Below are positions 6,201-44,184 of a DNA stretch of 64,000 bases, in pieces. Origin of the DNA: an uncultured Bacilli bacterium (GTDB lineage: Bacteria; Bacillota_I; Bacilli_A; RFN20; CAG-449); NCBI GenBank assembly GCA_947629415.1, contig CANRDP010000001.1, positions 11,290 to 75,289 on the forward strand, in the 5' to 3' direction. Position 1 is the stretch's first letter. The number at the start of each line of letters is the position of its first letter. Below the pieces are notes generated by a model that saw only the letters and a list, made by a program, of their open reading frames with translations, was not told the DNA's origin and searched no databases. The translations under genes were made by a program, and so were the position numbers.

Positions 6201-6835
6201 GCCAAAAATTGGGAATCAAGATTGCCACGCCTGTTTTTGATGGAATGACCAATGATGAAATTTATGAATTGATGGATCGTGCCGGAATGTCCAAAGACGG
6301 AAAAACCGTTCTTTACGATGGACGCACCGGAGAACGTTTTGATGAAAGAATTTCTGTCGGTGTCATGTATATGATCAAATTGGTACATATGGTGGATGAT
6401 AAACTTCATGCCCGTTCCACCGGACCTTATTCTTTAGTAACGCAACAACCGTTGGGAGGAAAAGCTCAGAATGGTGGACAGCGTTTCGGTGAAATGGAAG
6501 TTTGGGCATTGGAAGCTTATGGTGCCGCTCATATATTACAAGAAATTTTGACGATCAAATCCGATGATATGGTAGGTCGTGCAAAAACTTATGAAGCAAT
6601 CATCAAAGGAAAAGAAATACCAAAACCGGGAATGCCGGAATCCTTTAGAGTATTGCAAAAAGAATTACAATCTCTTGCTTTGGATGTAAAACTTCTCGAT
6701 AAAGATAATGTGGAAATTTCGACAGATAATCTTGCAGAAGAAAATGCTATGGAAGCAAGAAAGATTTCTTCTGCGGTTCGTGAAATGACAAGCGATATTC
6801 GACTTGTAAGTCCCGAAGAAGAAAATGAAGATTAA
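3257..6835 (+). CDS. rpoB: DNA-directed RNA polymerase subunit beta
   Basis: 1192 aa carrying the canonical beta-subunit motifs throughout (..[19 protein letters not shown]..), with RBS AGGAGG. Confidence 0.97.
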
Positions 6836-10760: not shown

Positions 10761-10780
10761 AAAAGTCGGTAGATAAAAAA

Positions 10781-10811
10781 ATAGCGAAAAGAAATTTTCG
10801 CTATTTTTTAT
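10781..10811. terminator. Bidirectional rho-independent terminator between the convergent rpoC and ATP-grasp genes
   Basis: ATAGCGAAAA-GAAA-TTTTCGCTAT has a T-tract downstream on the plus strand and an A-tract upstream, which is a T-tract on the minus strand. Confidence 0.6.
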
Positions 10812-10835: not shown

Positions 10836-11738
10836 TTAAGAAGAAACGGAATAAATTTTTTGATAAATATATTCGGCATAAGCTTTGGCAATATTTTTTC
10901 CTGTGACTTTTTCGATACCTCCAAAAAAAGCATTGGAATTGACTTCGCATATTTTATATCCGTCTTTTTCAAAAAGAACATCGATTCCGCAATAATCAAG
11001 ATGAAGAATACGACTGACTTTTTCACAAAGATCCGTTAATTCTTTTGAAGGAGTAAAAGGTATTCCTTTTCCTCCGAGCTCAAGATTGGAGCGAAAATCT
11101 TTTTTGGATTCTCTTATCATGGAAGCGATCACTTTATTTCCGATGACGATAACGCGAATATCTCTTCCTTGACTGAAAGATATAAATTCCTGAAATAAAT
11201 GAGGTTTACATTTCACTTGTTCCATAAGTGTCATGAGTTGTTTTCGGTTTTCCACTTTATAAACGCCATTTCCCAAAGATCCGTAGCTGGTTTTCAGAAT
11301 CAAAGGGTAAGAAAGTTCTTTTTCAATATGTTGATATGTTTCCTCTTTTATGGGTGTTTCTTGATTGTAACATAATAATCCCGGGAGAGTTTTTGGCATG
11401 GGAATATTTTGATTTGCCAATAAAATAGAAGTAATCATTTTGTCATCACAAGCACGTATGGCAAAATGAGAATTAAATAATTTCATACCTTCTTTTTCTA
11501 AAAGAAAGGATATGTATTTATCTTTATCTAAATAAACGCAAAAATCATAAGATAACAAAGAACAGTCAATGGCTCCTTTGCTATTAATTGTGGCATAAAA
11601 AGAATCGTTTCTCAAAATATCCATGGAGACATCCAGTTTTTCAAATTCTTCTTTTAATCTTCTGGATTGATTTAAACTATGTTCTAAAGTGGTATAAGCA
11701 TGAATTAAAATAAGACCTTTTTTCATATTTCGATACAC
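10836..11738 (-). CDS. RimK-like ATP-grasp ligase (alpha-L-glutamate ligase family)
   Basis: The 300-aa protein has the ATP-grasp fold signature (..LSYPLILKTSYGSLGNGVYKV.., ..CGIDVLFEKDGYKICEVNSNAFFGG..). An alternative start is MKKGLILIH at 11724. Confidence 0.6.
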   Translation of the reverse strand: MYRNMKKGLILIHAYTTLEHSLNQSRRLKEEFEKLDVSMDILRNDSFYATINSKGAIDCSLLSYDFCVYLDKDKYISFLLEKEGMKLFNSHFAIRACDDKMITSILLANQNIPMPKTLPGLLCYNQETPIKEETYQHIEKELSYPLILKTSYGSLGNGVYKVENRKQLMTLMEQVKCKPHLFQEFISFSQGRDIRVIVIGNKVIASMIRESKKDFRSNLELGGKGIPFTPSKELTDLCEKVSRILHLDYCGIDVLFEKDGYKICEVNSNAFFGGIEKVTGKNIAKAYAEYIYQKIYSVSS

Positions 11739-11904
11739 CTATATATAAAATTTATCAAAATATTTTAAATTTTCAAGATGAGAAATAAAACAAAGGAAAA
11801 TCCGTTTGTATATTTTTTTATTTTTGGTAAGAAGAAAAAAATAATATCAAAAAAAATCGATGCTTTTATTGAAAGGGGACATGAAAAAAAATTAATCAAA
11901 AATA

Positions 11905-11933
11905 TTGACAATAAAAAACGAAAAGAATATGTT
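11905..11933 (+). promoter_or_regulatory. Promoter of the SGNH-lipoprotein operon
   Basis: TTGACA at 11905-11910, a 17-nt spacer, TATGTT at 11928-11933. Confidence 0.35.
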
Positions 11934-11939
11934 AGAAAT

Positions 11940-12000
11940 GTAAGTGAAAGCACTTACAATTAATTTTTAAGGATATTTATGAACTATGTTCGGATATACG
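11940..12000 (+). promoter_or_regulatory. Bipartite conserved operator or leader motif, copy 1
   Basis: GTAAGTGAAAGCACTTAC (7-bp inverted repeat with a 4-nt centre) lies at 11940-11957, 6 nt after the -10. TTATGAACTATGTTCGGATATACG lies at 11978-12000. Near-identical copies occur at 15090-15149 and 20012-20067. Confidence 0.55.
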
Positions 12001-12063
12001 GATTAATTGATATCTTTTTGTTCTGTTGTTCATAAATGCCATGAAAGGATTAGGAAAGAAAAA

Positions 12064-13161
12064 ATGAAAAAAAGATTATTAGTTTTATCGTTAGCAGGTG
12101 TCGTGCTTTTCGGATGCAATAATGAAATTGTTGATTCGCAATCTGCAACATCAACGGGGGGGGGTACTTCGTCGGTAGGTACCACTTCACAAAATGCATC
12201 TTCAAGCAGTAATTCAGTAGTATCGGAAGGAAATAGTACTTCATCAAGTTCTTCGGTGTCTTCAAGTTCTTCTGTATCTTCAAGTTCTTCGGAAAGTTCC
12301 TCTTCACAAAGTTCTTCAGAAGAAGCGAAACAACAAGCTACCACAGTTTATCTTTTAGGAGAACAAGTTGCGGCAAAAGTAGATATGAAACCAAGCTCTA
12401 CCAATTATAAGTATTATTATCCAGCTAAGGGATTTGGAGAAACTTTGCCGGATTATTTTAACGAAAATGTAACTTTTAAGAATTTATCTGCGAATCAAGG
12501 CAGCGTTAATTCATATACATTCCCAACTGATGCAAAAACTAGTGAAGGATATAATGATTATGTGGCAAATTTGAAACAAGGAGATTATGTCTTAATTTCA
12601 TTTGGTATTAATGATCGAAAAATAGATACGAGCAAAAATCTGAATGGTGTTGCGTTAGGAACGGAAGAAGGACAATTTCAATATAATTTAACAAAATATG
12701 TAAACGAAGCTAAAAGCAAAGGAGCAACTCCGATCTTATTAACACCTTATGTATCTTATGATAGTAGTAAAAAATATGAAGCAAATAGTAAATATCTTTA
12801 TAACAAAGCAGAAACCAAGGCACACGAAGGAAATTATCCTCAGGCCATTCGCGATTTGGCGGAAGAATTAGATGTTATGTGTATAGATAATACTACTTGG
12901 ACAGCGGATTTATTTAGAAGTGCTCCTTCCGATGAAGACGTTCAAAAGTGGTATTGTTGGAAAAACTCTGAGGCAGATGGAAAACTGATGACAAATACAT
13001 TTAATGCCTATGGCGCACAGAAAATTGGTTATCATATTGCTGATGTATTGAAAAATAGTCAAAATGCTCTAGGAAAGTACATTAAGGATGATATTGAAGA
13101 TCCGACAGAAGCAGAATATTTAATAGCAAATACAGAAAATTATGTTAAAAGTAATAGTTAA
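12064..13161 (+). CDS. SGNH/GDSL-fold lipoprotein, a catalytically inactive paralog (CE12 RGAE-like pseudoenzyme)
   Basis: Lipobox signal MKKRLLVLSLAGVVLFGC followed by a 60-aa Ser-rich linker. It is homologous to the downstream gene, but GDS is replaced by GEQ (VYLLGEQVAAK) and DGTH by DGKL, so the nucleophilic Ser and the His are both lost. The track start at 12007 was rejected because ATG 12064 has an RBS. Confidence 0.6.
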   Translation: MKKRLLVLSLAGVVLFGCNNEIVDSQSATSTGGGTSSVGTTSQNASSSSNSVVSEGNSTSSSSSVSSSSSVSSSSSESSSSQSSSEEAKQQATTVYLLGEQVAAKVDMKPSSTNYKYYYPAKGFGETLPDYFNENVTFKNLSANQGSVNSYTFPTDAKTSEGYNDYVANLKQGDYVLISFGINDRKIDTSKNLNGVALGTEEGQFQYNLTKYVNEAKSKGATPILLTPYVSYDSSKKYEANSKYLYNKAETKAHEGNYPQAIRDLAEELDVMCIDNTTWTADLFRSAPSDEDVQKWYCWKNSEADGKLMTNTFNAYGAQKIGYHIADVLKNSQNALGKYIKDDIEDPTEAEYLIANTENYVKSNS

Positions 13162-13179
13162 TAAAAACAAAGGAAAAAT

Positions 13180-14910
13180 ATGAAAAAAAAGAAATTACTT
13201 GTTTTATCATTGACGAGCTTTGCTCTATTCGCTTGTGGAAATACAGGAGAAACGAGTGCAACAACATCCTCTGTTGCATCATCTTCAGTTTCTTCAAATA
13301 GCGAAAATGACAGTAGTTCTCAAACGAGTTCATCCGTTGAACCATTAAAGGCTACGACATTGTATATGATTGGTGATTCCACTTGTGCGAATTATGACTT
13401 AGCGACAAAAAATACAACGTATTACTACCAAATTCAAGGTTTCGGAACAACAATCAAAGATTATTTCAAAAAAGAAGTAACGGTTAAAAATCTTGGTGTT
13501 GGTGGTGCTTCTACAAAGAGTTTCCCAACGGAAGATAAGTCGAAAGAAAATTATGCGGAATTTAAAAATAATGTAAAAGCAGGGGATTATGCGATTATTA
13601 CTTTTGGGCATAATGATGAAAAGAAAACAGCTGTTGGTACACAGCTAGGAACGATTGCAGATACAATTACAAGCGATACGTTCCAAGGATATCTTTATTC
13701 CAATTATATTAAGGTATGTCTTGATGCCGGTGCTACACCGATTCTTGCTACACCTATTGCGCGTTATGATAGCAAAGGAAATTGGGAAGAAGGCACTAAG
13801 TACTTACATGTAATGACGGAAGATTCAACTTTCAATGCAGGGGATTATGCTCAAGCTATTCGTGATGTGGCTGAAAAATATTCCCTAACTTGTATTGATA
13901 CAACCAAAATGACAGGAGATGCTTTAAGAGCCCTAGGAGCGGAAGAGGGTAAAAAATGGTATGGTTGGCCAACTTCCACATCTTATGATGGTACGCATGT
14001 CAATATTTATGGAGCACAACAAGTGGGTTATATGATGGCAAAAACATTGAAGGAATCCACAAATAATTTAGGAAAGTATGTCGTAGATGATTTAAAAGCA
14101 CCGACAGAAGCAGAATATTTAAAACAAAATCCTTCATATGTTGAACCGACATATATAGCACCGGGAGAAGGAACATGGTCTAGCCATTGGAATACGACAA
14201 ATAATTGGCATGGATCTGTTTTCGGAGGAATGAAAAAAAGTAGTTTTGCCAAAGAACTCGATAAATACTCTATCACGGAAAATGGTGGAACATCCGCGGA
14301 TGGAACATTAAGTGTCACTTTAGCAGATACGGATCCTAATTACTCGGGAAGATTGAATTCGACTGCCGACGGAATGGTGATGTATTTCCAACAAATCAAC
14401 AAAAATGATTCATTTACTTTGGAAGCAAGCGTGAAAATCGATGACTTGACGAGTGATGCGGTACGACAACAGCAGAATGCTGTGGGTATTATGGTTCGTG
14501 ATGATATGTATATTGATCAATACATTTCTGGTTTGACTTCTCGTTATGCCGCGGCAGGATATTACGGAACAGCTTTTGATGAAGCCGGATCGTATACATA
14601 TTGTGCTTGGGCAAGAAGATATGATGATACGAATACAACCGAAGGAAAAAAAGATAGAATTAAAGAATCGTATTATCCTAAAGAAAATAGCACGATTGAT
14701 GTAAAGATTGTAAAAAATGATACTTCTGTTCAAACATATTACAAACTAGCTACGGATTCTCAATATCAAGAAGGACAATCTTTTGATACCGATTTAGAAT
14801 TAACAGCTGTGGATTCGGATTATGTCTATGCAGGTCTCTTCCTCTGCGGAGGAGCAGGAATGACGGCAACCTTTACGAATGTGAAGTTAACAATCAATCC
14901 TGTTGAGTAA
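13180..14910 (+). CDS. SGNH/GDSL esterase lipoprotein (rhamnogalacturonan acetylesterase/CE12-like) with a C-terminal beta-sandwich extension
   Basis: Lipobox LFAC. The SGNH blocks are intact: I MIGDSTCANY, II LGVGGAST, III FGHNDEK, V DGTHVN. A C-terminal domain of about 250 aa has unknown function and could be a carbohydrate-binding module (CBM). Confidence 0.6.
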   Translation: MKKKKLLVLSLTSFALFACGNTGETSATTSSVASSSVSSNSENDSSSQTSSSVEPLKATTLYMIGDSTCANYDLATKNTTYYYQIQGFGTTIKDYFKKEVTVKNLGVGGASTKSFPTEDKSKENYAEFKNNVKAGDYAIITFGHNDEKKTAVGTQLGTIADTITSDTFQGYLYSNYIKVCLDAGATPILATPIARYDSKGNWEEGTKYLHVMTEDSTFNAGDYAQAIRDVAEKYSLTCIDTTKMTGDALRALGAEEGKKWYGWPTSTSYDGTHVNIYGAQQVGYMMAKTLKESTNNLGKYVVDDLKAPTEAEYLKQNPSYVEPTYIAPGEGTWSSHWNTTNNWHGSVFGGMKKSSFAKELDKYSITENGGTSADGTLSVTLADTDPNYSGRLNSTADGMVMYFQQINKNDSFTLEASVKIDDLTSDAVRQQQNAVGIMVRDDMYIDQYISGLTSRYAAAGYYGTAFDEAGSYTYCAWARRYDDTNTTEGKKDRIKESYYPKENSTIDVKIVKNDTSVQTYYKLATDSQYQEGQSFDTDLELTAVDSDYVYAGLFLCGGAGMTATFTNVKLTINPVE

Positions 14911-14952
14911 AAAATAAATTAAATCGTAAAAGAAGATGAGAATTTTATGAAT

Positions 14953-14995
14953 AGGCGGTTTACCAATGGGCTAAACCGCTTATTCATTTTTTTCA
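14953..14995 (+). terminator. Rho-independent terminator
   Basis: GCGGTTTA-ccaatgggc-TAAACCGC followed by the T-rich stretch ttattcattttttt. Confidence 0.5.
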
Positions 14996-15028
14996 TTATT
15001 ATTTGTTGCACTTAGATTATAATTAACG
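14984..15028. repeat. 45-nt intergenic element, copy A
   Basis: TCATTTTTTTCATTATTATTTGTTGCACTTAGATTATAATTAACG matches 43930-43974 at about 38 of 45 positions. Confidence 0.5.
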
Positions 15029-15054
15029 CAATTACCACAAAAGAGGATAATTAT

Positions 15055-15083
15055 TTGACTTTCAACCGAATTTGCTTTAAGAT
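15055..15083 (+). promoter_or_regulatory. Promoter of the GH105-like operon
   Basis: TTGACT at 15055-15060, a 17-nt spacer, TAAGAT at 15078-15083. Confidence 0.4.
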
Positions 15084-15089
15084 AAGAAT

Positions 15090-15149
15090 GTAAGTGTAAG
15101 CACTTACAAATTTATTTATACAAACTTATGAACAATGTTCGGATATACG
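15090..15149 (+). promoter_or_regulatory. Bipartite conserved operator or leader motif, copy 2
   Basis: GTAAGTGTAAGCACTTAC at 15090-15107 lies 6 nt after the -10. TTATGAACAATGTTCGGATATACG lies at 15126-15149. Confidence 0.55.
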
Positions 15150-15173
15150 AATTTGTGCAAAAGAGGAGAGTAG

Positions 15174-16373
15174 ATGAAATTCTTGGAAAAAGAAATTGAA
15201 ATGAACCTGGAATCATATATTACGGATTTATGTATTCGTTCTACTTATGAAAGACCTCTTTGGAATCAGGAAATATTGATGGGATTAAAAAAACCCGGTT
15301 GGAATTATATTGATGGTTGCATGTTCAATGGGTTATTAAGTCTTTATGAGGAGAATCATAATGATAAAATTATCGAATATATTGATCATTATATATCTCC
15401 ATTGATTGATGAAAACGGATATATAAAGATTTATTATTACAATAATTATAATCAATATACTGAAGAAGGACATGATTCGGATCCATGCAATGAAGGAAAA
15501 GTTCTTTTTACTTTATATGAAAAAACGCATAAAGAAAAATATCGTAAGGCAATTGAATTTCTTCATAAACAAATCGAAGAATTACCGAGAATCCAAGGAA
15601 ATTTTTGGCATAAAGAAAAATATCCCAATCAAATCTGGCTGGATGGATTATATATGATTCAACCTTTTTATGCTATGTATGAAAAGAAGTTTAATTGTGA
15701 AAGAAATTTCAATGATATTGTTTATCAATTAGAAAATTGTTTTGATTTGACCTTTGATAAAAAAACTTCTTTAATGATGCATGGATATGATGGAAATTAT
15801 TTAGATAGCAAAGAAAAGATGATATGGTCTAAAGAAAAAAACGGGCAATCAAAGATTGCTTGGCTCAGAGCTTGCGGATGGTATGAAATGGCTCTTGTGG
15901 ATACTTATGAATATATCAATCAACCAAGATTACAAAGTAAATTAAAAAATCTGTTACAAATTACAATCGATGGATTGATGAAGTATAAAGTAAAAAATAC
16001 GGATATGTTCTATCAAGTCATTGATAAAAAGAAAAAAGCAGGAAATTATTTTGAAACTTCCGGATCACTCATGATTGCATATGCGATTTTAAAAGGGTGT
16101 CGACTTAAGATGCTGACGAAGCGATATCAAGAAATGGGATTACGTATCTTCCGCGGAGTACTGAAAAAATATTTTTATAGGGGAAAAGATGATAAATTTC
16201 ATTTGGGAGGTATATGCATTGGGGCAGGGCTATCGGCGTCGAAAACCGATCGGAATGTTGGAACATATCGAATGTATATTTCTCGAAAAGTGGTTCAAGA
16301 TGATGGAAAAGCCATTGGACCTCTGATGATGGTATTATCAGAAATACATAGAATGGAAAAGGAGAGTGTATGA
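15174..16373 (+). CDS. Glycoside hydrolase family 105/88-like (unsaturated rhamnogalacturonyl/glucuronyl hydrolase), cytoplasmic
   Basis: 399 aa with no signal peptide. The (alpha/alpha)6 Glyco_hydro_88-type motifs WNYIDGCMFNGLL, IWLDGLYMIQPFYAMY, HGYD and AWLRACGWYEMALVDTYEY resemble YteR/YesR and UGL. Confidence 0.55.
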   Translation: MKFLEKEIEMNLESYITDLCIRSTYERPLWNQEILMGLKKPGWNYIDGCMFNGLLSLYEENHNDKIIEYIDHYISPLIDENGYIKIYYYNNYNQYTEEGHDSDPCNEGKVLFTLYEKTHKEKYRKAIEFLHKQIEELPRIQGNFWHKEKYPNQIWLDGLYMIQPFYAMYEKKFNCERNFNDIVYQLENCFDLTFDKKTSLMMHGYDGNYLDSKEKMIWSKEKNGQSKIAWLRACGWYEMALVDTYEYINQPRLQSKLKNLLQITIDGLMKYKVKNTDMFYQVIDKKKKAGNYFETSGSLMIAYAILKGCRLKMLTKRYQEMGLRIFRGVLKKYFYRGKDDKFHLGGICIGAGLSASKTDRNVGTYRMYISRKVVQDDGKAIGPLMMVLSEIHRMEKESV

Positions 16374-17890
16374 TGAAAAAACGATTCTTATTTTTAACGG
16401 GAGTATTGTTATCTCTTTGTGCCTGTGGGGGAACGAATTCCGAGATCCCCGAATCGCATCTTCGATTTAATAATATTGCAATCCGCGAATCCAAACTTGT
16501 AGCCGGTGCCATTGATGTTTTTGTTGAAACACTGGATAAAGATGTCGATATCTATTATCTTTTTGTGGATCATGAGGCAAAAGCACCTGCAGTTTCTCAA
16601 ATCATAGAGGGAAAAGACTATGATGGGGTGAAAGTATTGAGTTATGGTTCCGAAAAAGATATGGTTTATAAAACAGTCACCGGTTTTGATGAATTGGCAT
16701 GGATTGATTTTTATTGTGTACTTCAACAGGAAAATAAAATTTCGGATATCTATTCGACAAGCGTTATGACATTAGATGCTAAAGGCGTAGAAGATAAAGG
16801 AGATGGTACATTAGAAAATCCTTATCGTATATACACTGTAGAAGATTTAGAACAGGTAGGAGCAGAAAGTAGTACATTAAGTGCTTATTATGAACTTCAA
16901 AATGATCTGGATTTGAGTGCTTTTTACGGAGAAGAAAAAAAATCCTTTACACCTATAGGGACGCAAACGGGATCTGCGAAGGCATTTAATGGATCGTTTA
17001 ACGGAAAAGGATATACGATTTCCAATCTTTATATTAATTCAACTTCCGAATCTACAGGATTGTTTGGACAATTAGGTGCAGACGGAGTAATTTCTAATCT
17101 AAATATTGAAAATGCAAAAGTATATTCCACACAACAACGTACGGGTATTGTTGTAGGATACTCCAAGGGTACTGTGGCTAATATCAATGTAATCAACGGA
17201 ACGATTCATGGAACAAGAAAAGTCGGCGGTGCCATCGGAGATGTTTATGAAACAGGTCTTTGCAATCGTATTTTTGTAAAAGATACTTATGTCAAAGGAA
17301 CCGGTGATGATGTCGGTGGTTTAATCGGATGTGTTGATGCTACGGCAGGAGATACAAATCCTATTGAAGTTAAAAATAGTTATGCTATAGCTACGGTAGA
17401 AGGAACTAAGTATGCCGGGGGATTCATCGGATATGCCCGATGCATGCTTATTGATGGTTGCTATGCAATGGTAAATATTACCGGTACAGAAGGTGTCGGT
17501 GCTTTTATTGGAATGGCTCAACATCGTAGCGGTTCTCCGGTTCAACCGAAAGTTTCGAATTGCTTTGCTTTAAAAGGGCATGCCGAAGGAACATCGAATG
17601 CGGGAAAATTCTTTGGTAATTTTTCAACTTCCAATGGAGGTGTAGATACTTCAAAGATTTATTATAGTCAGATTACTCTTACTGCACCAACGGATAAAAC
17701 GGGTAATTATGGCCAGGAAATCACTTGGTTTAATTCTAGTAATGAATTGAAAGCATGGATAGAAAATACACAAAATATTCAACTGGATTTTGAATATTCT
17801 TGGGAAATTCAGGAAAATGCTTTGCGACCTACTCTGAAAAATTCGAAAGCATATGATGACGGAGTCACGATGAGCATAGGAGGAGAATAA
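16370..17890 (+). CDS. GLUG-motif right-handed beta-helix lipoprotein
   Basis: Lipobox LSLCAC. Conserved module GDGTLENPYRIYTVEDLEQVG...FNGSFNGKGYTISNLYINS, followed by repeated GG(L/I)(I/A)G turns (VGGAIGDV, VGGLIGCV, AGGFIGYA, VGAFIGMA). A paralog lies at 35246-37018. Confidence 0.5.
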   Translation: MMKKRFLFLTGVLLSLCACGGTNSEIPESHLRFNNIAIRESKLVAGAIDVFVETLDKDVDIYYLFVDHEAKAPAVSQIIEGKDYDGVKVLSYGSEKDMVYKTVTGFDELAWIDFYCVLQQENKISDIYSTSVMTLDAKGVEDKGDGTLENPYRIYTVEDLEQVGAESSTLSAYYELQNDLDLSAFYGEEKKSFTPIGTQTGSAKAFNGSFNGKGYTISNLYINSTSESTGLFGQLGADGVISNLNIENAKVYSTQQRTGIVVGYSKGTVANINVINGTIHGTRKVGGAIGDVYETGLCNRIFVKDTYVKGTGDDVGGLIGCVDATAGDTNPIEVKNSYAIATVEGTKYAGGFIGYARCMLIDGCYAMVNITGTEGVGAFIGMAQHRSGSPVQPKVSNCFALKGHAEGTSNAGKFFGNFSTSNGGVDTSKIYYSQITLTAPTDKTGNYGQEITWFNSSNELKAWIENTQNIQLDFEYSWEIQENALRPTLKNSKAYDDGVTMSIGGE

Positions 17891-17891
17891 A

Positions 17892-19904
17892 ATGAAAAAG
17901 ATATGGAAAAAAGGTTTAATTATTGTTTCATTGACAACGATACTTCCTTTCGTGTCTTGTAACGCAAATCAAGAAAATTCGAATGCTTCTACTTCGGAGA
18001 ATACAAGTGAATCAACGGAAGTAAAAACAAATTTTGAAATTGTTAAAGAATTTATGGATTCATTTTCCATTGATAATTCGGATGCGATTATTCAAAATAT
18101 TTATTTGCCGAAAAAATTTGCTTTGGAAGGAGTTGTCACATGGCAAAGCAGTGAACCGAAAGTTATCACCAGTGAAGGTCATGTGACACGAAATAAGGAA
18201 AAAGATGTTCCGGTTACTTTAACGGCTATTGCTATGTTAGGATCTACAAGAGAACAACGAGTGTATCATGTAGTAGTAAAAAAAGTAAATGAAACTGCCG
18301 AAGGCAAAATTGATGAAGCGATGTCTCAGTTTACTTTACTGGAAAACAACACGATTGACCGCGATATTATGGTTCTTCCTCGTGTCACAGATATTAATGG
18401 CGTTTATATTACTTGGGAAACTTCCGATGCTTCCATTATTGATTTAAAGGGAAATGTTTATCGGGGGAATGAAGAAAAGAAAGTGACTTTGACTGGAACT
18501 TTCTCTTATGGAGAATATCGTAAGAAAAAATCCTTTGAAATCGTTGTACAGACAAAGGCCGACGACAGTATTCCTGTGATCGATGAAAATGATTCTCGAA
18601 TTTTAAATAAAGTGTATGTCGCCAGTGTCGTGGATATTGTTACCGCGGGATTGGATGCTAGACCAGGTGATGCTATTATCTTAAGAGATGGTACTTATAT
18701 GAATGTGGAGTTTAATATTGAACGCTCCGGCACAGCAGAACATCCTATTTTCATTTTTGCCGAACATCCTGGAAAAGTGATTTTAAGTGGAGAATCAAGA
18801 ATCAATATTCTGGCAGATTATGTTATTGTCGCAAATTTCCGATTTGAAAACGGCTATCCTTCTAAAGATAGTGGTGTGGTTAATCTTGAAGGAAATCATC
18901 TGCGCTTTACAAACAATGTTATCAAAGAATACGAAATCCATGAAAATGATTACAAATGGTTATCTTTAAGAGGAAGATTTCATGAGATCGATCGAAATAC
19001 TTTTGATGGCAAAACGACCGGAGGATCTTTGTTAACCATTTGGAGAGATGATATGTTCTCTCAGGATCACCACATTCATCATAATCAATTCTTGAATTAC
19101 CAAGAAGCCGGAGGTGCCAATGGATATGAAACCATTCGTGTCGGCACATCTACTTATTCACAAACGGATTCCAATGTTTTGATCGAAAATAATCTATTTG
19201 AAAATATTTCCGGAGAAATTGAAATTATTTCCATTAAATCAGGAAGAACGATTGTACGTAATAATACCTTTAAAACCTGTAAGGGTCTTGTTACCGCACG
19301 TCATGGAAAAAATGATTTGATTGAAAACAATGTCTTTCTTTGTGGGCGTGAAAAAAGTGATGGTTCCATTGAACGTATTGATGATACCGGAGGCATTCGT
19401 ATGTATGATGCCGGACATGTTGTCCGTAATAATTACATGCAGGATGTCGAAACTTCTTCCAACACCCGTGCGGGAATTGTCGTACATTCGGGAGTGAACG
19501 ATTATGGTGATACAACCGTCATGAATCTCCAGTGGACTCCGTTTAATGTCTTGATTCAGGATAATACGATTATTAATAGCCGCAACAGCATTTTGATTGG
19601 AGGAAAATATAGTATTCCGTGCAAAGATGTTACTTTTGATAATAATCTTGTTGTTTCACCAACCTATGGTGCGATACGCTATGATAAAAATCCTGTAAAT
19701 CCCACTTGGATCAATAATCATTTCTATGCACCTACTTACTTAGAAAGTAATAGTGCGTTTAAAGATGTAATAGCTCCCGATTGGTTTTCAACGGCGATAC
19801 CGCAACTGATTAAAGGAGAAAACGGATTATATAAAATAGCAGAAAATTACGGCGCTTCTAATCTCACGGTTCAAACCAGTGAGACTACAGGAACAAATTA
19901 TTAA
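17892..19904 (+). CDS. Polysaccharide lyase lipoprotein with a PL6-like parallel beta-helix and two N-terminal Ig-like repeats
   Basis: Lipobox PFVSC. The motif GEIEIISIKSGRTIVRNNTFKTCKGLVTARHGKNDLIENNVF matches the PL6 (chondroitinase B/AlyP) catalytic region, with the Lys of IKS and the Arg of RHG conserved. Two roughly 90-aa repeats precede the helix. Confidence 0.5.
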   Translation: MKKIWKKGLIIVSLTTILPFVSCNANQENSNASTSENTSESTEVKTNFEIVKEFMDSFSIDNSDAIIQNIYLPKKFALEGVVTWQSSEPKVITSEGHVTRNKEKDVPVTLTAIAMLGSTREQRVYHVVVKKVNETAEGKIDEAMSQFTLLENNTIDRDIMVLPRVTDINGVYITWETSDASIIDLKGNVYRGNEEKKVTLTGTFSYGEYRKKKSFEIVVQTKADDSIPVIDENDSRILNKVYVASVVDIVTAGLDARPGDAIILRDGTYMNVEFNIERSGTAEHPIFIFAEHPGKVILSGESRINILADYVIVANFRFENGYPSKDSGVVNLEGNHLRFTNNVIKEYEIHENDYKWLSLRGRFHEIDRNTFDGKTTGGSLLTIWRDDMFSQDHHIHHNQFLNYQEAGGANGYETIRVGTSTYSQTDSNVLIENNLFENISGEIEIISIKSGRTIVRNNTFKTCKGLVTARHGKNDLIENNVFLCGREKSDGSIERIDDTGGIRMYDAGHVVRNNYMQDVETSSNTRAGIVVHSGVNDYGDTTVMNLQWTPFNVLIQDNTIINSRNSILIGGKYSIPCKDVTFDNNLVVSPTYGAIRYDKNPVNPTWINNHFYAPTYLESNSAFKDVIAPDWFSTAIPQLIKGENGLYKIAENYGASNLTVQTSETTGTNY

Positions 19905-19914
19905 CTCACCTTTT

Positions 19915-19934
19915 CCCTCTTGAAAAATAGAGGG
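19915..19934 (+). terminator. Weak terminator-like hairpin
   Basis: CCCTCT-tgaaaaat-AGAGGG with a poor U-tract. Confidence 0.25.
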
Positions 19935-19977
19935 ACCTCCTTTCTAGTTTACCAAACCCTTTTTGAAGATAGGATAA

Positions 19978-20005
19978 TTGACAAAAATGGTGGATATGCT
20001 AGAAT
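19978..20005 (+). promoter_or_regulatory. Promoter of the transporter and lyase operon
   Basis: TTGACA at 19978-19983, a 16-nt spacer, TAGAAT at 20000-20005. Confidence 0.45.
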
Positions 20006-20011
20006 GGAAGC

Positions 20012-20067
20012 GTAAGTGAAAGCACTTACAAATTTTTTAAAGATATATCCGAACTTTGTTCGGATAT
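20012..20067 (+). promoter_or_regulatory. Bipartite conserved operator or leader motif, copy 3
   Basis: GTAAGTGAAAGCACTTAC at 20012-20029 lies 6 nt after the -10. A perfect 10-3-10 palindrome ATATCCGAAC-TTT-GTTCGGATAT lies at 20045-20067. Confidence 0.6.
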
Positions 20068-20102
20068 ATGGAAAAGTATTCAGAATTTCTTGAGGAGGAT
20101 GG

Positions 20103-20657
20103 ATGGATTTAAAAAAAGCAGACTTGATTATCTTTTCGTTTTTATCAATATTATTTGAATTTTTATCAAGCTATTTCTTCAATTTTCTGAATAGTGGATT
20201 TATCTTAAGCTTTTCCTTGTTGATTTTTCTTATTATGGCTCTTCGATGGGGAATAATGGGAATTGTACCTTTCTTACTTTCTGCGCTTCCATTAATTGCA
20301 ATGGAAAAGTCCATGGAATTATGGCAAAGCATTCTCTATTATCTTGTTGCGAATGTTTTCGCGGTAATTCCCATAGGTTGCTATACTCTTTTTTGCAAAG
20401 GGAAGAGTAGAAATGTGATGATTCAATCACCGGTATATCTTATTTTATTTTCTTTAGCGACATTTCTCAGTTTAGCTATTGGAAAATGGATTGCATGCAT
20501 CATCATAAATCAAGATGTTGCATCAATTGGAGGATATTTTATTTCTATGATATTTACGTATATTTTGACCATTCTTGTTTTATACGCATTATCAAGATTA
20601 AAAAATTCTATTGTAGCGGATATGGATTCTTATAGAAATGATGGAGAGGAGGTGTAA
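20103..20657 (+). CDS. Integral membrane protein, possibly a YesL/DUF624-like accessory to the CUT1 ABC transporter
   Basis: 184 aa with about 5 TM helices, first gene of the operon directly upstream of LplB/LplC-type permeases. The family assignment is a context-based guess. Confidence 0.3.
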   Translation: MDLKKADLIIFSFLSILFEFLSSYFFNFLNSGFILSFSLLIFLIMALRWGIMGIVPFLLSALPLIAMEKSMELWQSILYYLVANVFAVIPIGCYTLFCKGKSRNVMIQSPVYLILFSLATFLSLAIGKWIACIIINQDVASIGGYFISMIFTYILTILVLYALSRLKNSIVADMDSYRNDGEEV

Positions 20658-22527: not shown

Positions 22528-24603
22528 ATGAAAAAAATATTTTTAGGAGCAATTGTTGCAGCATCGACTTTTATTTCGTTAGCATCCTGTAACAATTCCG
22601 AAACACCAAATAGTTCTACATCTATAAGTGTTGATCTTACAACAAATATTGAATTGAAACTAAATATGGCCTACGGTAATAAGGATCAAACCGTGACATA
22701 TCAAAAATCCAATCCATTAACATTACCAGATAATACAGTTATCACTCAGGGTAGTTTGAAACCCTTCTGGAGTTATCTTGGGAAACAAACCAATACGACG
22801 TTTAAAGATATTACCATTCAATCTCAAAAAGCTTCTGAAATGATTACGACCTCTGCTGCAACCGGATTTACCGATGCAGATATTTACGGAGGAAATAGTA
22901 TTGCAGAATCTTTAATGAGCTATGGTGTGCAAAAAAAATTCGCTAACTTAACCGAAATGATGAATCAAGGATTGATGCCTCATGTGAAGGCATATTTAGA
23001 TGCAAATCCAAGTTTCAAATCGGCTATTACAGCTTATGATGGAAATATCTATCATCTTCCGTATATTGCCGAAGTCGGTGAATTTGCTCGTGATTATCAC
23101 ATGCGTGAAAGCTGGGTAACCAGTTTATTAGATAATACGGGTGGAAAATCATATGATACCGATACAACGCTTACGACATATTATAAAGGATTTTGGGTTG
23201 GAAATAATGCACGTACAGGAAATAACGGCGGAACCGTCACTCCAAAAGAAGGCGTGAATATCACTAAAAAGACAAATCAGAATATCATTACTTTGATGAA
23301 TGCTTTGCCAAGTAAAAATGGACAAGCCTTGGCCGAATGTTTAAAAACATATATTCAGAATAATTATGATTATACAAAGGCAAGCGAACTCTATTTAGGA
23401 GAAAAAGCGGCTTACGATATCGATGAACTTGTCGCTTTATTCCGTGTTATCAAAGCAAATCCAAAATTCTTAACAAGTGGAAAAGCAGATACGGTATGGC
23501 CCTACTTTACAAGACAATCTTCTTATCGAGAAGAATTATTACGATTTGCCACATATTTCGGTGGCGTTCGAGTTCATGGATCCGACTCATATTCTGCACG
23601 ATGGGAAATCGATGCAAATGGTCAAATTCAATATACATATACAAAAGAAGAACTCTACAATATATTGAATTATTTATCCGATTGGAATGCCGAAGGATTG
23701 ATTTTTACCGATACTTATGATTCCAACAATAAGAATAATTTCCGTAATCAACTATATTTTGCCGACAATGCGGAAAATGCGAAATTTGGATTTATGACAT
23801 TTGATTTTACGGCTTCAACTACTGCGGATGGCGGAGCAAATGAACCGGCAAGAGATATCGTTGGTGTTTTGCCTCCTGTATCTAAAGTCAATGGTGTATG
23901 GCAGTATTACATTGATAATTCTCGTGTTATCAAACCGGATGGTTGGGCAATTTCCAATCAATCTAGCGATGCTAAGAAACAAAGAGCTGCCGTAATCTTT
24001 GATTACTTCTTCACAGAAGAGGGTGCGGTTTTACAAAATTATGGTCTACCTCAAATGTTGAAAACAGATGAAAAATTCACCGGTCCTGATGGGAAAGAAG
24101 TACCTGCATATAATGACTGGACCTTACAAACAACAAAAGAAATGGCCAATGGTGACTTATCTACGTTCCTTCGTAATTTTATCGGTGCATTGATGCCTGT
24201 GGGTTATGCTAAAGAAATCGGATTTGAATATCAATATACTTCAGAACGTGGATTCAATGCTTGGAAATTATTGCAAAATTCCACTACGAATATACCTTCT
24301 TATGCCGGTACCGGACTTCAAGGAGATAATCCGAATTACTATAAACTCATTCCACCTGTTTTCTCTTTAACGGAAAGACAAACGGAAACATTACAAAATG
24401 ATACGACAATCAATTCAGATAACTCCTTGTTTGAAGTAATCTTTAACATTATTCGATACAAAACTCGAAATGATGCTCCAGCAAGTGTCAAATTACCTGC
24501 AGATTACAATGCATACTATAAGTTATTCCAAGATGCCGGAATTGAAACTTATATCTCAACGTATCAAGCAGCATATCAAACAATGCAGGCATTAAATAAA
24601 TAA
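22528..24603 (+). CDS. Extracellular solute-binding lipoprotein of the ABC transporter (LplA/YesO-like, enlarged)
   Basis: Lipobox SLASC. The 691-aa family-1 sugar-binding protein follows the two permeases. Confidence 0.6.
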   Translation: MKKIFLGAIVAASTFISLASCNNSETPNSSTSISVDLTTNIELKLNMAYGNKDQTVTYQKSNPLTLPDNTVITQGSLKPFWSYLGKQTNTTFKDITIQSQKASEMITTSAATGFTDADIYGGNSIAESLMSYGVQKKFANLTEMMNQGLMPHVKAYLDANPSFKSAITAYDGNIYHLPYIAEVGEFARDYHMRESWVTSLLDNTGGKSYDTDTTLTTYYKGFWVGNNARTGNNGGTVTPKEGVNITKKTNQNIITLMNALPSKNGQALAECLKTYIQNNYDYTKASELYLGEKAAYDIDELVALFRVIKANPKFLTSGKADTVWPYFTRQSSYREELLRFATYFGGVRVHGSDSYSARWEIDANGQIQYTYTKEELYNILNYLSDWNAEGLIFTDTYDSNNKNNFRNQLYFADNAENAKFGFMTFDFTASTTADGGANEPARDIVGVLPPVSKVNGVWQYYIDNSRVIKPDGWAISNQSSDAKKQRAAVIFDYFFTEEGAVLQNYGLPQMLKTDEKFTGPDGKEVPAYNDWTLQTTKEMANGDLSTFLRNFIGALMPVGYAKEIGFEYQYTSERGFNAWKLLQNSTTNIPSYAGTGLQGDNPNYYKLIPPVFSLTERQTETLQNDTTINSDNSLFEVIFNIIRYKTRNDAPASVKLPADYNAYYKLFQDAGIETYISTYQAAYQTMQALNK

Positions 24604-24666: not shown

Positions 24667-25221
24667 ATGAAAAAATTAGTAAAATGTTTCAAATTTCAAA
24701 AAGTGATGTTTGTTGTCCAAATTTTGATGATCGTAATAACTTTTATTTCGGCCTTATCTTTCATGACACAATATGCCAATCTTTTTGGGCTCGAACTTCC
24801 ATTAAATCAAAGTATTATTGACTTTCATAATCATATGCAAAACTTCAATAAAACATGGGTATACCTTTCCATTGTAAGTCTTGTTTCTATTATTGCGATG
24901 TTTTTCTTAGAAACACAAAAAAGAGTTGCTGATCGTTTTGCTTTGATTGTTATGGGTATCTTTATTGCCATTGCTATTGCAACGGCTGTTTATGTTATTG
25001 TCAATACGATGAGTTTATTGCAAGAATATCAACAGGTAGATTTTACTTATATTTATTTGGAAGCTCCGGAATTGGCCGATTATCAATTGCAATTTGAAAC
25101 CTTTTATCTTGTTTTCATCGTTCATATCGTCGCCATTATAACTTTTATAGGATATTTTGTAAGTCTGTTACTTTCTCATATCCTTTATGTAAAAGAGAAA
25201 GGAGAACAAAATGCTCAGTAA
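24667..25221 (+). CDS. Hypothetical polytopic membrane protein
   Basis: 184 aa with 4-5 predicted TM helices and no recognisable motif. Confidence 0.4.
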   Translation: MKKLVKCFKFQKVMFVVQILMIVITFISALSFMTQYANLFGLELPLNQSIIDFHNHMQNFNKTWVYLSIVSLVSIIAMFFLETQKRVADRFALIVMGIFIAIAIATAVYVIVNTMSLLQEYQQVDFTYIYLEAPELADYQLQFETFYLVFIVHIVAIITFIGYFVSLLLSHILYVKEKGEQNAQ

Positions 25222-26008
25222 TCAAGCATTGGAGGAAAAGATCCTTAAGTGTCAGAAAACGATGGACGAAGCCAAAAAAACGGATGATGCCATTGCTTCT
25301 TCTTCTATAGAACATATAGATGAAACACTTCCCAGTCGGATTCAAAAAACTTTAAAGAAAATTCAAGAAAAATATGTATCTGCTAAAAGCGATAAACAAA
25401 AAGAGCAGGCTATGAGCACTTTTCAAATCTATAAGGATAAAGTGGCTTATCAGACAAAAAAAATTTTGGTAAATGCTCGATTTGATATGCATCGTTATGA
25501 AAGCATGAAGGAATGGAATCAACAAGAGGATGATGTTAAAGAAGAACAAAAAATAAATTTGACCTTTTATAAGGCCAATGTATCCAGTTATTGGCTTACT
25601 TTATCTGTTATCCTAGTTACTTTAGTTTATTTGGTTGAAATGTTATCCATGATGGAAAGAACTTTTTGGATTGGTATATTCATTCTCATCAATATCGCCT
25701 TTTTGCTCTTCTTATTTACAGCAGCGATTAAATTAAAGAATTATATTAAACTTTTCAGTTATCTTATATTTGCTTTTGGTATTTATACCATTCTGAGAAT
25801 AGGAGTCATTGTTCCTTTTATCTTGAATGTATCTCTTTTACCAACTGCGGATGATGCGAATTTTATGGCTAAAATAGTAATCATTCTGGTCAATATTTAT
25901 TCTTGTATTGTTTCTTTTTATATAGGTATTTCCTCTTTAAGAAAAGTGAAAAAACAAGAGCAATATATCAAAGAAGGTAAAATTACCTTCCATCAATTGT
26001 CAAAGTAG
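25211..26008 (+). CDS. Hypothetical membrane protein with a charged N-terminal cytoplasmic domain
   Basis: 265 aa: about 110 aa of K/E-rich soluble sequence, then about 4 TM helices. It overlaps the upstream gene by 11 nt. Confidence 0.4.
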   Translation: MLSNQALEEKILKCQKTMDEAKKTDDAIASSSIEHIDETLPSRIQKTLKKIQEKYVSAKSDKQKEQAMSTFQIYKDKVAYQTKKILVNARFDMHRYESMKEWNQQEDDVKEEQKINLTFYKANVSSYWLTLSVILVTLVYLVEMLSMMERTFWIGIFILINIAFLLFLFTAAIKLKNYIKLFSYLIFAFGIYTILRIGVIVPFILNVSLLPTADDANFMAKIVIILVNIYSCIVSFYIGISSLRKVKKQEQYIKEGKITFHQLSK

Positions 26009-26016
26009 GTAATCAT

Positions 26017-27111
26017 ATGGCAGAGATTATTTTAAAAAATGTAAATAAAATTTATCCGAATGGAGCACATGCTGTTTATGACTTCAATTTGGAAATCAAA
26101 GATGGTGAATTTATCGTTTTAGTCGGTCCTTCCGGGTGTGGTAAATCAACGACGCTTCGCATGATTGCCGGTTTAGAGGGAATCACGTCCGGAGATCTTT
26201 ATATTGATGGAGAAAGAGTCAATTTGTTGGCACCTATGGATCGCGATATCGCTATGGTCTTCCAAAACTATGCTCTTTATTACAATATGTCGGTTTACGA
26301 TAATATGGGCATTTCTTTGAAATTGCGTCATGAACAGAAGAATATTATTCATAAAACCGTCAAAGATATGGCGATGCGTTTTGATTTGACGGATTATTTG
26401 AATCGGTTGCCATCCAATTTATCCGGTGGTCAAAAACAGCGCGTAGCTTTAGGTCGTGCGGTCGTTCGCAATCCGAAAGTTTTCCTCATGGATGAGCCTT
26501 TAAGCAATTTGGATGCAAAACTTCGTGAAAAAACTAGAAGTGAAATTGTTAAACTGCAAAAAGAATTAAAGACTACAACGATTTATGTCACACATGATCA
26601 GGTGGAAGCTATGACAATGGCCGATCGCATTGTCGTGATGAATGAAGGATATATTCAGCAGATTGCTACGCCTTTTGATCTTTATAATTATCCGGACAAT
26701 ATGTTTGTTGCGGGATTTATCGGAATGCCCAATATTAATTTTATTGAAGGAACAGTTCACGATAATTATTTCCATTTTGATGGCATGAAAGTGGCTATTG
26801 ACGAAGCTTCCATTCCAAAATTAAAGGCCTATGAAAATAAAGAAGTCATCATGGGAATTCGTCCGGAGTATATCGAATTCGGCGAAAAGGCTTATGAATC
26901 TTTCCCGGATGCAATACTGGATCTTCCGATGATTCATAAAGAATTTCTCGGGGATGAATACTATGTGGAATTGAAACTTCCGTCACAGGAAATTACCGCG
27001 CGTATCAGCAGTGAATTTCATCTGACTTCCCAAAACTTAAAAGTGGTATTCAATATGAAGAAAGTTCACTTCTTTGATAAAGAAACAACGAAGAGAATTG
27101 TGGAGGAGTAA
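26017..27111 (+). CDS. Sugar ABC transporter ATP-binding protein, MsmK/MsmX/MalK type (copy 1)
   Basis: Walker A GPSGCGKST, signature LSGGQKQRVALGRA, Walker B FLMDEPLSNLD, and a C-terminal MalK-like regulatory/TOBE domain. Confidence 0.85.
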   Translation: MAEIILKNVNKIYPNGAHAVYDFNLEIKDGEFIVLVGPSGCGKSTTLRMIAGLEGITSGDLYIDGERVNLLAPMDRDIAMVFQNYALYYNMSVYDNMGISLKLRHEQKNIIHKTVKDMAMRFDLTDYLNRLPSNLSGGQKQRVALGRAVVRNPKVFLMDEPLSNLDAKLREKTRSEIVKLQKELKTTTIYVTHDQVEAMTMADRIVVMNEGYIQQIATPFDLYNYPDNMFVAGFIGMPNINFIEGTVHDNYFHFDGMKVAIDEASIPKLKAYENKEVIMGIRPEYIEFGEKAYESFPDAILDLPMIHKEFLGDEYYVELKLPSQEITARISSEFHLTSQNLKVVFNMKKVHFFDKETTKRIVEE

Positions 27112-27113
27112 GT

Positions 27114-27635
27114 ATGGGAAATAAATTTTTAATTACATTGAAAAAAGTGTTGAAAACTCCAAGACTCATGTCAAAATATATCATTTGTTTTACTGCGGTT
27201 ATGCACCTTGTGATTTCTCACATTCAGATTCAATCCATTGCTCTTTTGAACGATCAAATTTGTGGTTTTACTATGTTTTTTTTCATACTTTTTGGATTTG
27301 CTTGTTTATTCAATGCTATACGAATGAATCAAATCACTTTGAAAAAATGGATTATTTCTCTTTTAATGCTTTGTATCACCATGGGATTTGGAATCTGGTT
27401 AGTGATAATTTATTTTTCTTCTTTGGGCACGCAAGTGAATCTTGAACTCAATGAAATTCTTCCGGGAATTGTAGTTTCCATTATAGTACTTGTACTCTAT
27501 TTGATTGGCATGATTGAGCTTATTGTCGGTTATTTTGTGGAAAGAAAACAAGTAAAAGAAGTTCTTTATATCGAAGATGAAATCGATTCGGAAGAAGAAT
27601 TCGAATCAGAGGAAAAAACGCAAGGAGAAAATTAA
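27114..27635 (+). CDS. Hypothetical membrane protein with an acidic C-terminal tail
   Basis: 173 aa with about 4 TM helices, ending in EDEIDSEEEFESEEK. Confidence 0.4.
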   Translation: MGNKFLITLKKVLKTPRLMSKYIICFTAVMHLVISHIQIQSIALLNDQICGFTMFFFILFGFACLFNAIRMNQITLKKWIISLLMLCITMGFGIWLVIIYFSSLGTQVNLELNEILPGIVVSIIVLVLYLIGMIELIVGYFVERKQVKEVLYIEDEIDSEEEFESEEKTQGEN

Positions 27636-27638
27636 TTC

Positions 27639-28169
27639 ATGGAGAAAAAAGATGAAAATAAGAAACCGTTTTTATCTCGATTCAGCGATCGTACAAAGAT
27701 AGCTTTTTTAAGGTTTTGGTTTGTTGGTCTCATTTATTATTTGGTCGGATGGGGTACCGATTTGGGTTTAAATGAAGATCCGGTGGATTTCATCTTTGTT
27801 TTAGCTCTCATCAGCAGTGCGGCAATAATTATTATTTTCAATCCCATCTGCCATTATATGTTTGATATTGAAAGAAATGGTATCATTATGAATAAAGAAA
27901 TTCAAAACAGAAAAATCTATCAGGGAGTTCTTTTTAATCTATTTGAGTTTGTTCGTTGTCTTCTGGTAACCGTACTCATTTATCTCACCTATGAATTAAT
28001 CAATATGGCTTTTATTCATTTGACCAATGCGGATTATCTCATTTTACAGGGAGAGCCGATTTTATATGGTGTATTCTTTACTTTATATTATGAAATATTT
28101 ACATCGATAAGAAATAAGATTTTGTTCTTATTTCAATCAAAAGTAAAACAAAAAAAGGAAAAGAAATGA
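27639..28169 (+). CDS. Hypothetical membrane protein
   Basis: 176 aa with about 4 TM helices. Confidence 0.4.
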   Translation: MEKKDENKKPFLSRFSDRTKIAFLRFWFVGLIYYLVGWGTDLGLNEDPVDFIFVLALISSAAIIIIFNPICHYMFDIERNGIIMNKEIQNRKIYQGVLFNLFEFVRCLLVTVLIYLTYELINMAFIHLTNADYLILQGEPILYGVFFTLYYEIFTSIRNKILFLFQSKVKQKKEKK

Positions 28170-39147: not shown

Positions 39148-39178
39148 TATCCGGATGGATATTTTGTTCATCCGGATA
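39148..39178 (+). terminator. Hairpin after the 37030 gene
   Basis: TATCCGGATG-gatattttgtt-CATCCGGATA with a weak U-tract. Confidence 0.35.
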
Positions 39179-44003: not shown

Positions 44004-44184
44004 GCATGAAGAAAAAAATTTAAAGTGATAACAAACATTTTTATAGAAGAAAGAAAAAAATAATATCAAAAAAATCGACTTTTTTCGACATTTATTTTTT
44101 AATTTTTTAATTTTTAAAACTTGACATGAAAAAAAATTTTTTTTAGAATAATAGCAAATATTTTTATAGAAGGGAGAAAACAAA
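44004..44184 (+). repeat. Duplicated A-rich promoter/leader module, two imperfect direct copies of about 60 nt
   Basis: 44004-44063 (CATGAAGAAAAAAATTTAAAGTGATAACAAACATTTTTATAGAAGAAAGAAAAAAA) and 44113-44184 (CATGAAAAAAAATTTTTTTTAGAATAATAGCAAATATTTTTATAGAAGGGAGAAAACAAA) are the two copies. The segment 44048-44078 also matches 11823-11853. Confidence 0.45.
44121..44150 (+). promoter_or_regulatory. Promoter of the 44185 operon
   Basis: TTGACA at 44121-44126, an 18-nt spacer, TAGAAT at 44145-44150. The RBS GGGAG lies 7 nt before ATG 44185. Confidence 0.45.

Follow-up and report, generated by a model that had tools for sequence, protein, structure and literature searches.

A 64-kb stretch of DNA from the metagenome assembly of an uncultured Bacilli bacterium, referred to here as the window, carries a polyuronate (alginate-type) locus in which three operons are each preceded by the same pair of short sequence elements. 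What recognizes these elements, and do the two of them make up a single site? A sequence-only reading had treated the pair as one bipartite motif, with its most symmetric copy in front of the operon encoding an IclR-family regulator. Here we analyse both elements in the window and in related loci, and weigh the proteins and RNA structures that could account for them.

Three operons share a promoter-proximal pair of elements

The window (G+C 35%) runs from rpoB and rpoC through a divergent ATP-grasp gene into operons 1–3, all three encoded on the forward strand. Operon 1 (12064–14910), downstream of copy 1 of the elements, encodes two GDSL-type esterase lipoproteins. The mechanical open reading frame of its first gene starts at TTG 12007, which is probably wrong; we place the true start at ATG 12064, which is preceded by a ribosome-binding site and is where a lipoprotein signal peptide (MKKRLLVLSLAGVVLFGC) begins. 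Operon 2 (15174–19904), downstream of copy 2, encodes a GH88 protein, an unknown 506-aa protein and a PL6 (Chondroitinase_B family) lyase.

Operon 3, downstream of copy 3, holds polyuronate/alginate-type genes. It opens with a membrane protein, two ABC permeases, a 691-aa lipoprotein, MalK-like ATPases and a DSE-like protein, continues with a heparinase II/III-like lyase, a KdgF-like cupin, an SDR, an alginate-lyase-domain protein and the IclR-family regulator, and ends with GLUG and beta-helix proteins, a GDSL esterase and a second MalK. A promoter/terminator scan found no convincing promoter or terminator between 20.1 kb and 43.9 kb; operon 3 is therefore probably ~24 kb long (20103–43873), with iclR inside it. 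The regulator gene had been placed correctly within this operon, and the length of 15 kb suggested for it is probably too short.

Neither Pfam nor NCBIfam offers a family for several of the locus's conserved genes (16370–17890, 20103–20657, 22528–24603, 24667–26008 and 27114–28169). These family-less genes include a 184-aa membrane protein that always stands first in the transporter operon, and the 691-aa lipoprotein, which stands where a solute-binding protein would be expected. Operon 3 also contains paralogous pairs: the beta-helix genes 37030–39135 and 39260–41719 share ~73% DNA identity over several blocks, and the MalK-like ATPase genes 26017–27111 and 42731–43873 share ~70%.

All three copies of the element pair sit downstream of a promoter-like −10 box, a feature overlooked in the sequence-only reading. 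On the forward strand, P1 (11905–11933) has a TTGACA −35, a 17-nt spacer and a TATGTT −10; P2 (15055–15083) has TTGACT, a 17-nt spacer and TAAGAT; and P3 (19978–20005) has TTGACA (19978–83), a 16-nt spacer with a TG, and TAGAAT (20000–05). The sigma-70-like P3 (TTGACA-16-TGcTAGAAT) is the top promoter match within 10.7–20.3 kb, agreeing at 11/12 positions plus the extended TG. Position 19978, reported as the start of the third motif copy, is the −35 hexamer of P3. These promoters are consensus matches, and the transcription starts used below are deduced from them.

A perfect palindrome before operon 3

The palindrome at copy 3 is confirmed: ATATCCGAACTTTGTTCGGATAT has an exact match at 20045–20067 and none in 100 shuffles, and forms a 23-bp palindrome of 10-3-10 layout (ATATCCGAAC-TTT-GTTCGGATAT). 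Its symmetry extends two bases further on each side than had been reported. An inverted-repeat scan returned a perfect 12-3-12 palindrome (ATATATCCGAAC-TTT-GTTCGGATATAT, 20043–20069) enclosing the 10-3-10 core. This is the third-longest perfect inverted repeat of the window, and 0.07 inverted repeats with arms of at least 12 nt are expected in shuffled sequence.

The core of the palindrome recurs as GAAC-N3-GTTCGGATAT (element 2) at 11981–97, 15130–46 and 20051–67. Copies 1 and 2 retain the right arm and the GAAC core, just as had been described; their left arms agree with that of copy 3, judged by eye, at 9/12 and 7/12 positions, respectively. The sequence GAACNNNGTTCGNNNNNNYGRAW has three matches in the window, exactly the three copies, against 0.01 expected.

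To the right of the inner pair lies a conserved third box, which the first reading also overlooked: GTTCG-GATATA is followed by CGGAT, CGAAT or TGGAA. Read in three boxes on the forward strand, element 2 spans 11980–12003 in copy 1 (TGAAC-tat-GTTCG-gatata-CGGAT, 12/14), 15129–15152 in copy 2 (TGAAC-aat-GTTCG-gatata-CGAAT, 13/14) and 20050–20073 in copy 3 (CGAAC 20050–54, GTTCG 20058–62 and a weak TGGAA 20069–73; 11/14). The third boxes of the window are imperfect relative to CGAAC (CGAAT 4/5, CGGAT 3/5, TGGAA 2/5), and for this reason the three-box reading draws largely on the relatives described below. Copy 3 is atypical. Its box 1 and flank perfectly mirror box 2 and the spacer, so that the 12-3-12 palindrome is made of the inner box pair plus mirrored AT-rich spacers, and its box 3 is the weakest.

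In each leader the boxes fall at about +39 to +62 of the inferred start, upstream of the ribosome-binding site. The three regions have diverged outside the promoter hexamers and the two elements; the shared blocks are therefore conserved islands and not the product of a recent duplication.

The conserved unit is three boxes rather than the palindrome

Relatives were gathered as contigs with permease homologues (71–87% identity), giving eleven further syntenic loci from distinct genomes. A scan of the genome collection with the IclR protein returned only two loci, one in an uncultured Bacilli MAG from rabbit and one in an Anaeroplasma bactoclasticum MAG; the 10-kb flank taken for the Anaeroplasma locus stopped short of the promoter.

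In 11 of the 12 genomes, conserved copies of element 2 precede the orthologous operons. What is conserved is a set of three 5-bp boxes, yGAAC-N3-GTTCG-N6(AT-rich)-CGrAw, rather than the 23-bp palindrome; the consensus over 25 sites is tGAAC-N3-GTTCG-nATATA-CGAAc. Scanning the 12 syntenic loci at a threshold of at least 12/14 gave 18 three-box matches, against 0.82 in shuffles. Every one of the 18 falls in a regulatory gap of the locus, and 17 point the same way as the gene downstream. Perfect GTTCG-N6-CGAAC sites occur in the relatives L005 (1727), L013 (9202, 9313 and 9408) and L016 (6675). Five loci (L007, L009, L011, L016 and L017) carry four-box tandems, in which two 16-bp palindromes are separated by 3 bp and have centres 19 bp apart. 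Changes to the boxes among relatives are symmetric (GTTCA/TGAAC, ATTCG/CGAAT). L012 and L014 each have an IclR orthologue directly beside the boxes; IclR and boxes of the Anaeroplasma MAG (L003/L008) share a contig and belong to the same operon.

This comparison changes the relationship between the three copies. The outer left arm of the palindrome, ATATCC, is conserved in no relative, and the right-hand third box is conserved; on these grounds we rejected a view of copies 1 and 2 as decayed forms of copy 3. They had been called degenerate, yet they fit the cross-species consensus better than copy 3 does (12/14 and 13/14 versus 11/14). The graded affinity that had been read from their left arms is accordingly not supported as stated. 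An order of affinity does not follow from the left arm alone, because the predicted ranking depends on the binding mode: it would reverse between binding set by the inner pair alone and binding set by all three boxes. Nor is a simple dimeric protein, as earlier proposed, the natural partner for such a site; the conserved three-box or tandem four-box unit points to a tetramer or an alternative-dimer mode.

The genome without element 2 is that of L015. Its permease is 81% identical, and its promoter region lacks IclR-type boxes at a threshold of at least 10/14. Two overlapping cre-like 14-mers lie on the −35 box and spacer there (8996–9330), and two LacI-family genes adjoin the locus (4667–6713). 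L015 may represent a regulator replacement. We considered the LacI-family genes as candidates for CcpA itself and rejected this on score (153 bits against a cut-off of 442). In L005, a group II intron-type reverse transcriptase gene (RVT_1 + GIIM; 250–1518) lies directly upstream of the polysaccharide locus.

Element 2 follows published IclR-family architecture

Suvorova and Gelfand (2021, PMC8222616) divide IclR-family motifs into a group 1 (GKTYCRYW3-4RYGRAMC, earlier given as GTNCG-N5-6-CGNAC) and a group 2 (TGRAACAN1-2TGTTYCA, with AAC-N3-4-GTT at its core). They describe three-box sites, of alternating direction and with one pair per geometry, in 32 orthologous groups, for which PcaU, PobR and HmgR are the experimental precedents; tandem sites 18–22 nt apart in 94 groups, interpreted as tetramer binding; and a proposal of two dimerization registers (PMC8222616).

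Element 2 displays all four of the published features, namely group 1 geometry, group 2 geometry, three boxes and tandem spacing. Perfect group 1 sites are present in the relatives, and in the window the right box of this pair is partial. For group 2, each window copy has GAAC-N3-GTTC, which in copy 3 is perfect and extended; the published TG and CA flanks are only partly matched in the window. The likeness to known three-box operators thus covers the GTTCG/CGAAC half-sites, a group 1 pair (5-6-5, with an AT-rich centre) combined with a group 2 pair (N3), optional tandems at ~19 bp, and a regulator encoded in or beside the catabolic locus that it would regulate.

There are also differences. 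The regulon here is of the polyuronate/alginate type, and its host is an Anaeroplasma-like gut bacterium, uncultured and low in G+C. Within the accessible part of the supplements to the survey (PMC8222616), Acholeplasma was not found and alginate occurs once, as a lyase-family row label whose displayed entries are all 0. Copy 3 is unusual in that its group-2-type palindrome is perfect over 27 bp and its third box has decayed. Furthermore, PcaU and PobR are activators that bind upstream, whereas the window sites lie downstream of the −10 box.

Two other systems invite comparison. KdgR of Enterobacteria and Thermotoga TM0065 are likewise IclR-family proteins of uronate/pectin catabolism that follow a logic of repressor and uronate-derived inducer. 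Their motifs are A/T-rich group 2 palindromes (RWWGAAACGNCGTTTCAKKA; TGAAAAT-G-GTTTTCT), as opposed to the GAAC/GTTCG three-box sites of the window. AusR, a GntR-family repressor of the alginate system of Zobellia galactanivorans, is similar in reportedly being a local repressor with operators before alginate-utilization operons, including its own (PMC7641319); regulator family, motif and phylum all differ, making it a functional analogue only.

The IclR-family regulator of operon 3

The candidate binder of element 2 is the 261-aa product of the forward-strand gene at 34386–35171, which contains HTH_IclR (PF09339, 2e-7) and IclR_C (PF01614, 3e-34) domains. We moved its start to an ATG following an AGGAGG ribosome-binding site, most likely 34386 rather than 34290. 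A search of the 64-kb window for a second transcription-factor gene found none. As the sole regulator gene of the window, and with sites that match the consensus of its family, it is the best candidate for the protein binding element 2, in agreement with the earlier suggestion.

The closest solved relative of this protein is Thermotoga TM0065 (PDB 1mkm, E = 3e-30). The KdgR NCBIfam model is its second-best match; the score does not reach the cut-off of the equivalog NF011671 (127.4 versus 275 bits). On these scores it classes as a KdgR/BhcR-like family member that falls well below equivalog cut-offs, and not as a KdgR orthologue.

The recognition helix has a K-S-S core that is invariant in five IclR orthologues. 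At a variable position of the helix, Lys (window and L002) or His (L003) accompanies GTTCG/CGAAx boxes, and Gln (L012 and L014) accompanies GTTCA/TGAAC boxes; this covariation is a hint, drawn from only four site-bearing genomes in which the IclR sequence is known.

Element 1 resembles a catabolite-control site

Element 1 (TGTAAG-N8-CTTACA) begins 5 nt after each −10 box, that is, at about +1. Its pattern TGTAAGTGaAAGCACTTACA has three matches in the window against 0.01 expected, all on the forward strand: copy 1 at 11939–11958 (TGTAAGTG-AAAG-CACTTACA), copy 2 at 15089–15108 (TGTAAGTG-TAAG-CACTTACA) and copy 3 at 20011–20030 (CGTAAGTG-AAAG-CACTTACA). Copy 2 holds TGTAAGCACTTACA, one mismatch from cre, and copy 3 holds the cre-like 14-mer TGAAAGCACTTACA at 20017–30. 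Relative to the cre 14-mer TGWAANCGNTNWCA, each of the three copies has a single mismatch, at the central G (GCAC), which turns CG into CA. CcpA also recognizes variable-spacer sites, cre_var, of the form TGTAAA-Yx-TTTACA (Yang et al. 2017, PMC5263246). TGTAAG/CTTACA agrees with that core at 5/6 positions per arm, with spacers of 8 nt in the window and of 7 and 10 nt in L004.

Searched at up to five mismatches, element 1 is absent from all relatives. In L004 its arms reappear as TGTAAG-N10-CTTACA and TGTAAG-N7-CTTACA, again 5 nt past the −10 box; they are missing at the third L004 promoter and in L005. Cre-like 14-mers (TGWAANCGNTNWCA, 0–1 mismatch) do occur in the same promoter regions of the relatives, at varying positions. 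Counted over all loci, about 13 of 20 such 14-mers fall in these promoter gaps, which make up roughly 1–2% of the sequence. The looser pattern TGTAAR-N0-20-YTTACA is not enriched overall (9 observed versus 6.2 in shuffles), and a metagenome scan for TGTAAG-N6-11-CTTACA-N14-26-GAACNNNGTTCG returned 11 loci, all of them chance matches in high-G+C or unrelated contexts.

We tentatively read element 1 as a LacI/CcpA-type catabolite-control site, an assignment that falls a little short of probable. Its TGTAAG/CTTACA arms are classic cre half-sites with the 14-mer one mismatch off, its spacer varies as in cre_var (PMC5263246), and it overlaps the inferred start of sugar-catabolic operons. It differs from both in the central CA and in a core of TGTAAG in place of TGTAAA, and a hairpin at the 5′ end of the RNA would account for the same features. 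Such a 5′-terminal stem-loop, acting as an mRNA stabilizer or as an early pause or terminator, is the less likely reading, though one with appreciable weight. In each of the five examples the element starts exactly 5 nt past the −10 hexamer, close to +1; its stem persists where the loop varies in length; the inner T-A pair becomes C-G or a U.G wobble in L004; and the hairpin (−8 kcal/mol, z = −4.2) precedes a T-rich run and was flagged by the terminator scan. However, the outer 6 bp are identical in sequence and do not covary, the cre-like 14-mers of the relatives also lie upstream of or over the −35 box, where they would not be transcribed, and the five examples come from two genomes, the metagenome search having given chance matches only.

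Element 2 as DNA operator, RNA leader or composite site

Could element 2 itself act as RNA? In that case the palindrome would be the stem of a leader hairpin governing termination, the stability of the mRNA or the access of ribosomes. In favour of this, each copy is placed after the inferred start and before the ribosome-binding site, sites nearly always share the orientation of the gene, the symmetric box changes in relatives would preserve pairing too, and copy 3 folds into a 12-bp stem (−14.8 kcal/mol, z = −5.0). Copies 1 and 2, however, reach only −3.7 and −4.2 kcal/mol (z = −1.0 and −1.5), and a structure common to the three leaders was rejected, the stable hairpin being confined to copy 3. 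The L009 site lies upstream of the −35 box, others fall within divergent promoter gaps (L007, L014, L016 and L017), the interval 11700–20300 has no credible Rfam match at E ≤ 5, and the sequence agrees with a DNA motif published for the IclR family, that of the locus regulator. We therefore consider a leader RNA highly improbable, and element 2 likely a DNA operator. Less credible still is that the three copies are left over from the duplication of a promoter cassette, or from a small mobile repeat, and have no specific regulator. It would explain three similar ~75-bp blocks within 8 kb, but the divergence of the regions outside the hexamers and elements speaks against it, as do boxes that keep orthologous positions despite unalignable flanks and that are strongly enriched over shuffles.

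There remains the question of whether elements 1 and 2 constitute one composite operator for a single protein or complex, as the term bipartite motif implied. Where a promoter has both elements (three cases in the window, two in L004), the gap from the end of element 1 to box 1 is nearly constant, at 19–21 nt, although these promoters, which come from two close genomes, may owe it to shared ancestry. The elements are nonetheless separable: element 2 occurs without element 1 in most relatives that keep it (L005, L007, L009, L011–L014, L016, L017 and one L004 promoter), the half-sites are unrelated (TGTAAG versus CGAAC), and the internal spacing of element 1 varies between 7, 8 and 10 nt. The composite reading is accordingly improbable, by a measure little different from that of the leader RNA, and the name bipartite motif does not hold.

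A model for the regulon

We favour two independent operators in each leader, of which element 2 is probably the site of the operon-encoded IclR repressor. The inner pair of boxes fits group 2 geometry and the right-hand pair group 1, and IclR would bind them as a dimer of dimers or in two alternative dimer registers. Lying between the start site and the ribosome-binding site, the boxes are so placed that binding would block transcription, and we infer that IclR represses all three operons until a uronate-derived metabolite frees it, a release modelled on KdgR-type IclR regulators. Operon 3 includes iclR and would be transcribed from P3, which would make the circuit negatively autoregulated; autoregulation had been suggested before and is plausible given the position of iclR and the uninterrupted stretch from 20.1 to 43.9 kb. 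Copy 3 would be a variant site, in which box 1 and its flank became a mirror of box 2 and its spacer while box 3 decayed to TGGAA. It is doubtful that one IclR protein faces two distinct site types, the palindrome of copy 3 and the three-box copies 1 and 2. Much less certainly, the cre-like element 1 over the start, bound by CcpA or another LacI-family protein, would add global carbon control.

The outcome is a regulon model for a polyuronate (alginate-type) locus, consisting of an operator consensus, three operons and a putatively autoregulated IclR. Regulatory knowledge is almost absent for uncultured Anaeroplasma-like gut bacteria, and the model is concrete and testable. It adds a clean natural example of the known three-box IclR site architecture and is otherwise ordinary, a local repressor with palindromic operators before its own catabolic operons. 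To our knowledge, nobody has demonstrated two dimerization registers in the IclR family, and copy 3, having shifted to a perfect inner palindrome, could offer a way of testing whether IclR proteins bind in two registers. If the two registers are real, copy 3 would lock IclR in one of them, the response of operon 3 would differ in affinity or inducer sensitivity from that of the two secreted-enzyme operons, and the locus would be a natural test bed for alternative dimerization in this family.

Other repeats in the window

The inverted-repeat data hold two further structures. A hairpin with perfect 10-bp arms (TATCCGGATG-N11-CATCCGGATA, 39148–39178) lies inside the 124-nt gap separating the paralogous beta-helix genes 37030–39135 and 39260–41719. 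Its arms are similar to the flank of element 2 (ATATCCG / CGGATAT). The hairpin could serve in processing or attenuation within the operon, or be what is left of an operator. The longest perfect inverted repeat of the window is a hairpin with perfect 15-bp arms (AAAAAATAGCGAAAA-GAAA-TTTTCGCTATTTTTT, 10776–10809) between the convergent rpoC and ATP-grasp genes, where it probably serves as a bidirectional terminator. Beyond operon 3, a 57-nt direct repeat (44019–44198; two copies, 74% identical, 123 nt apart) flanks a strong promoter-like site (44121); the gene downstream, of 252 aa and unannotated, is followed by an FtsX/ABC system.
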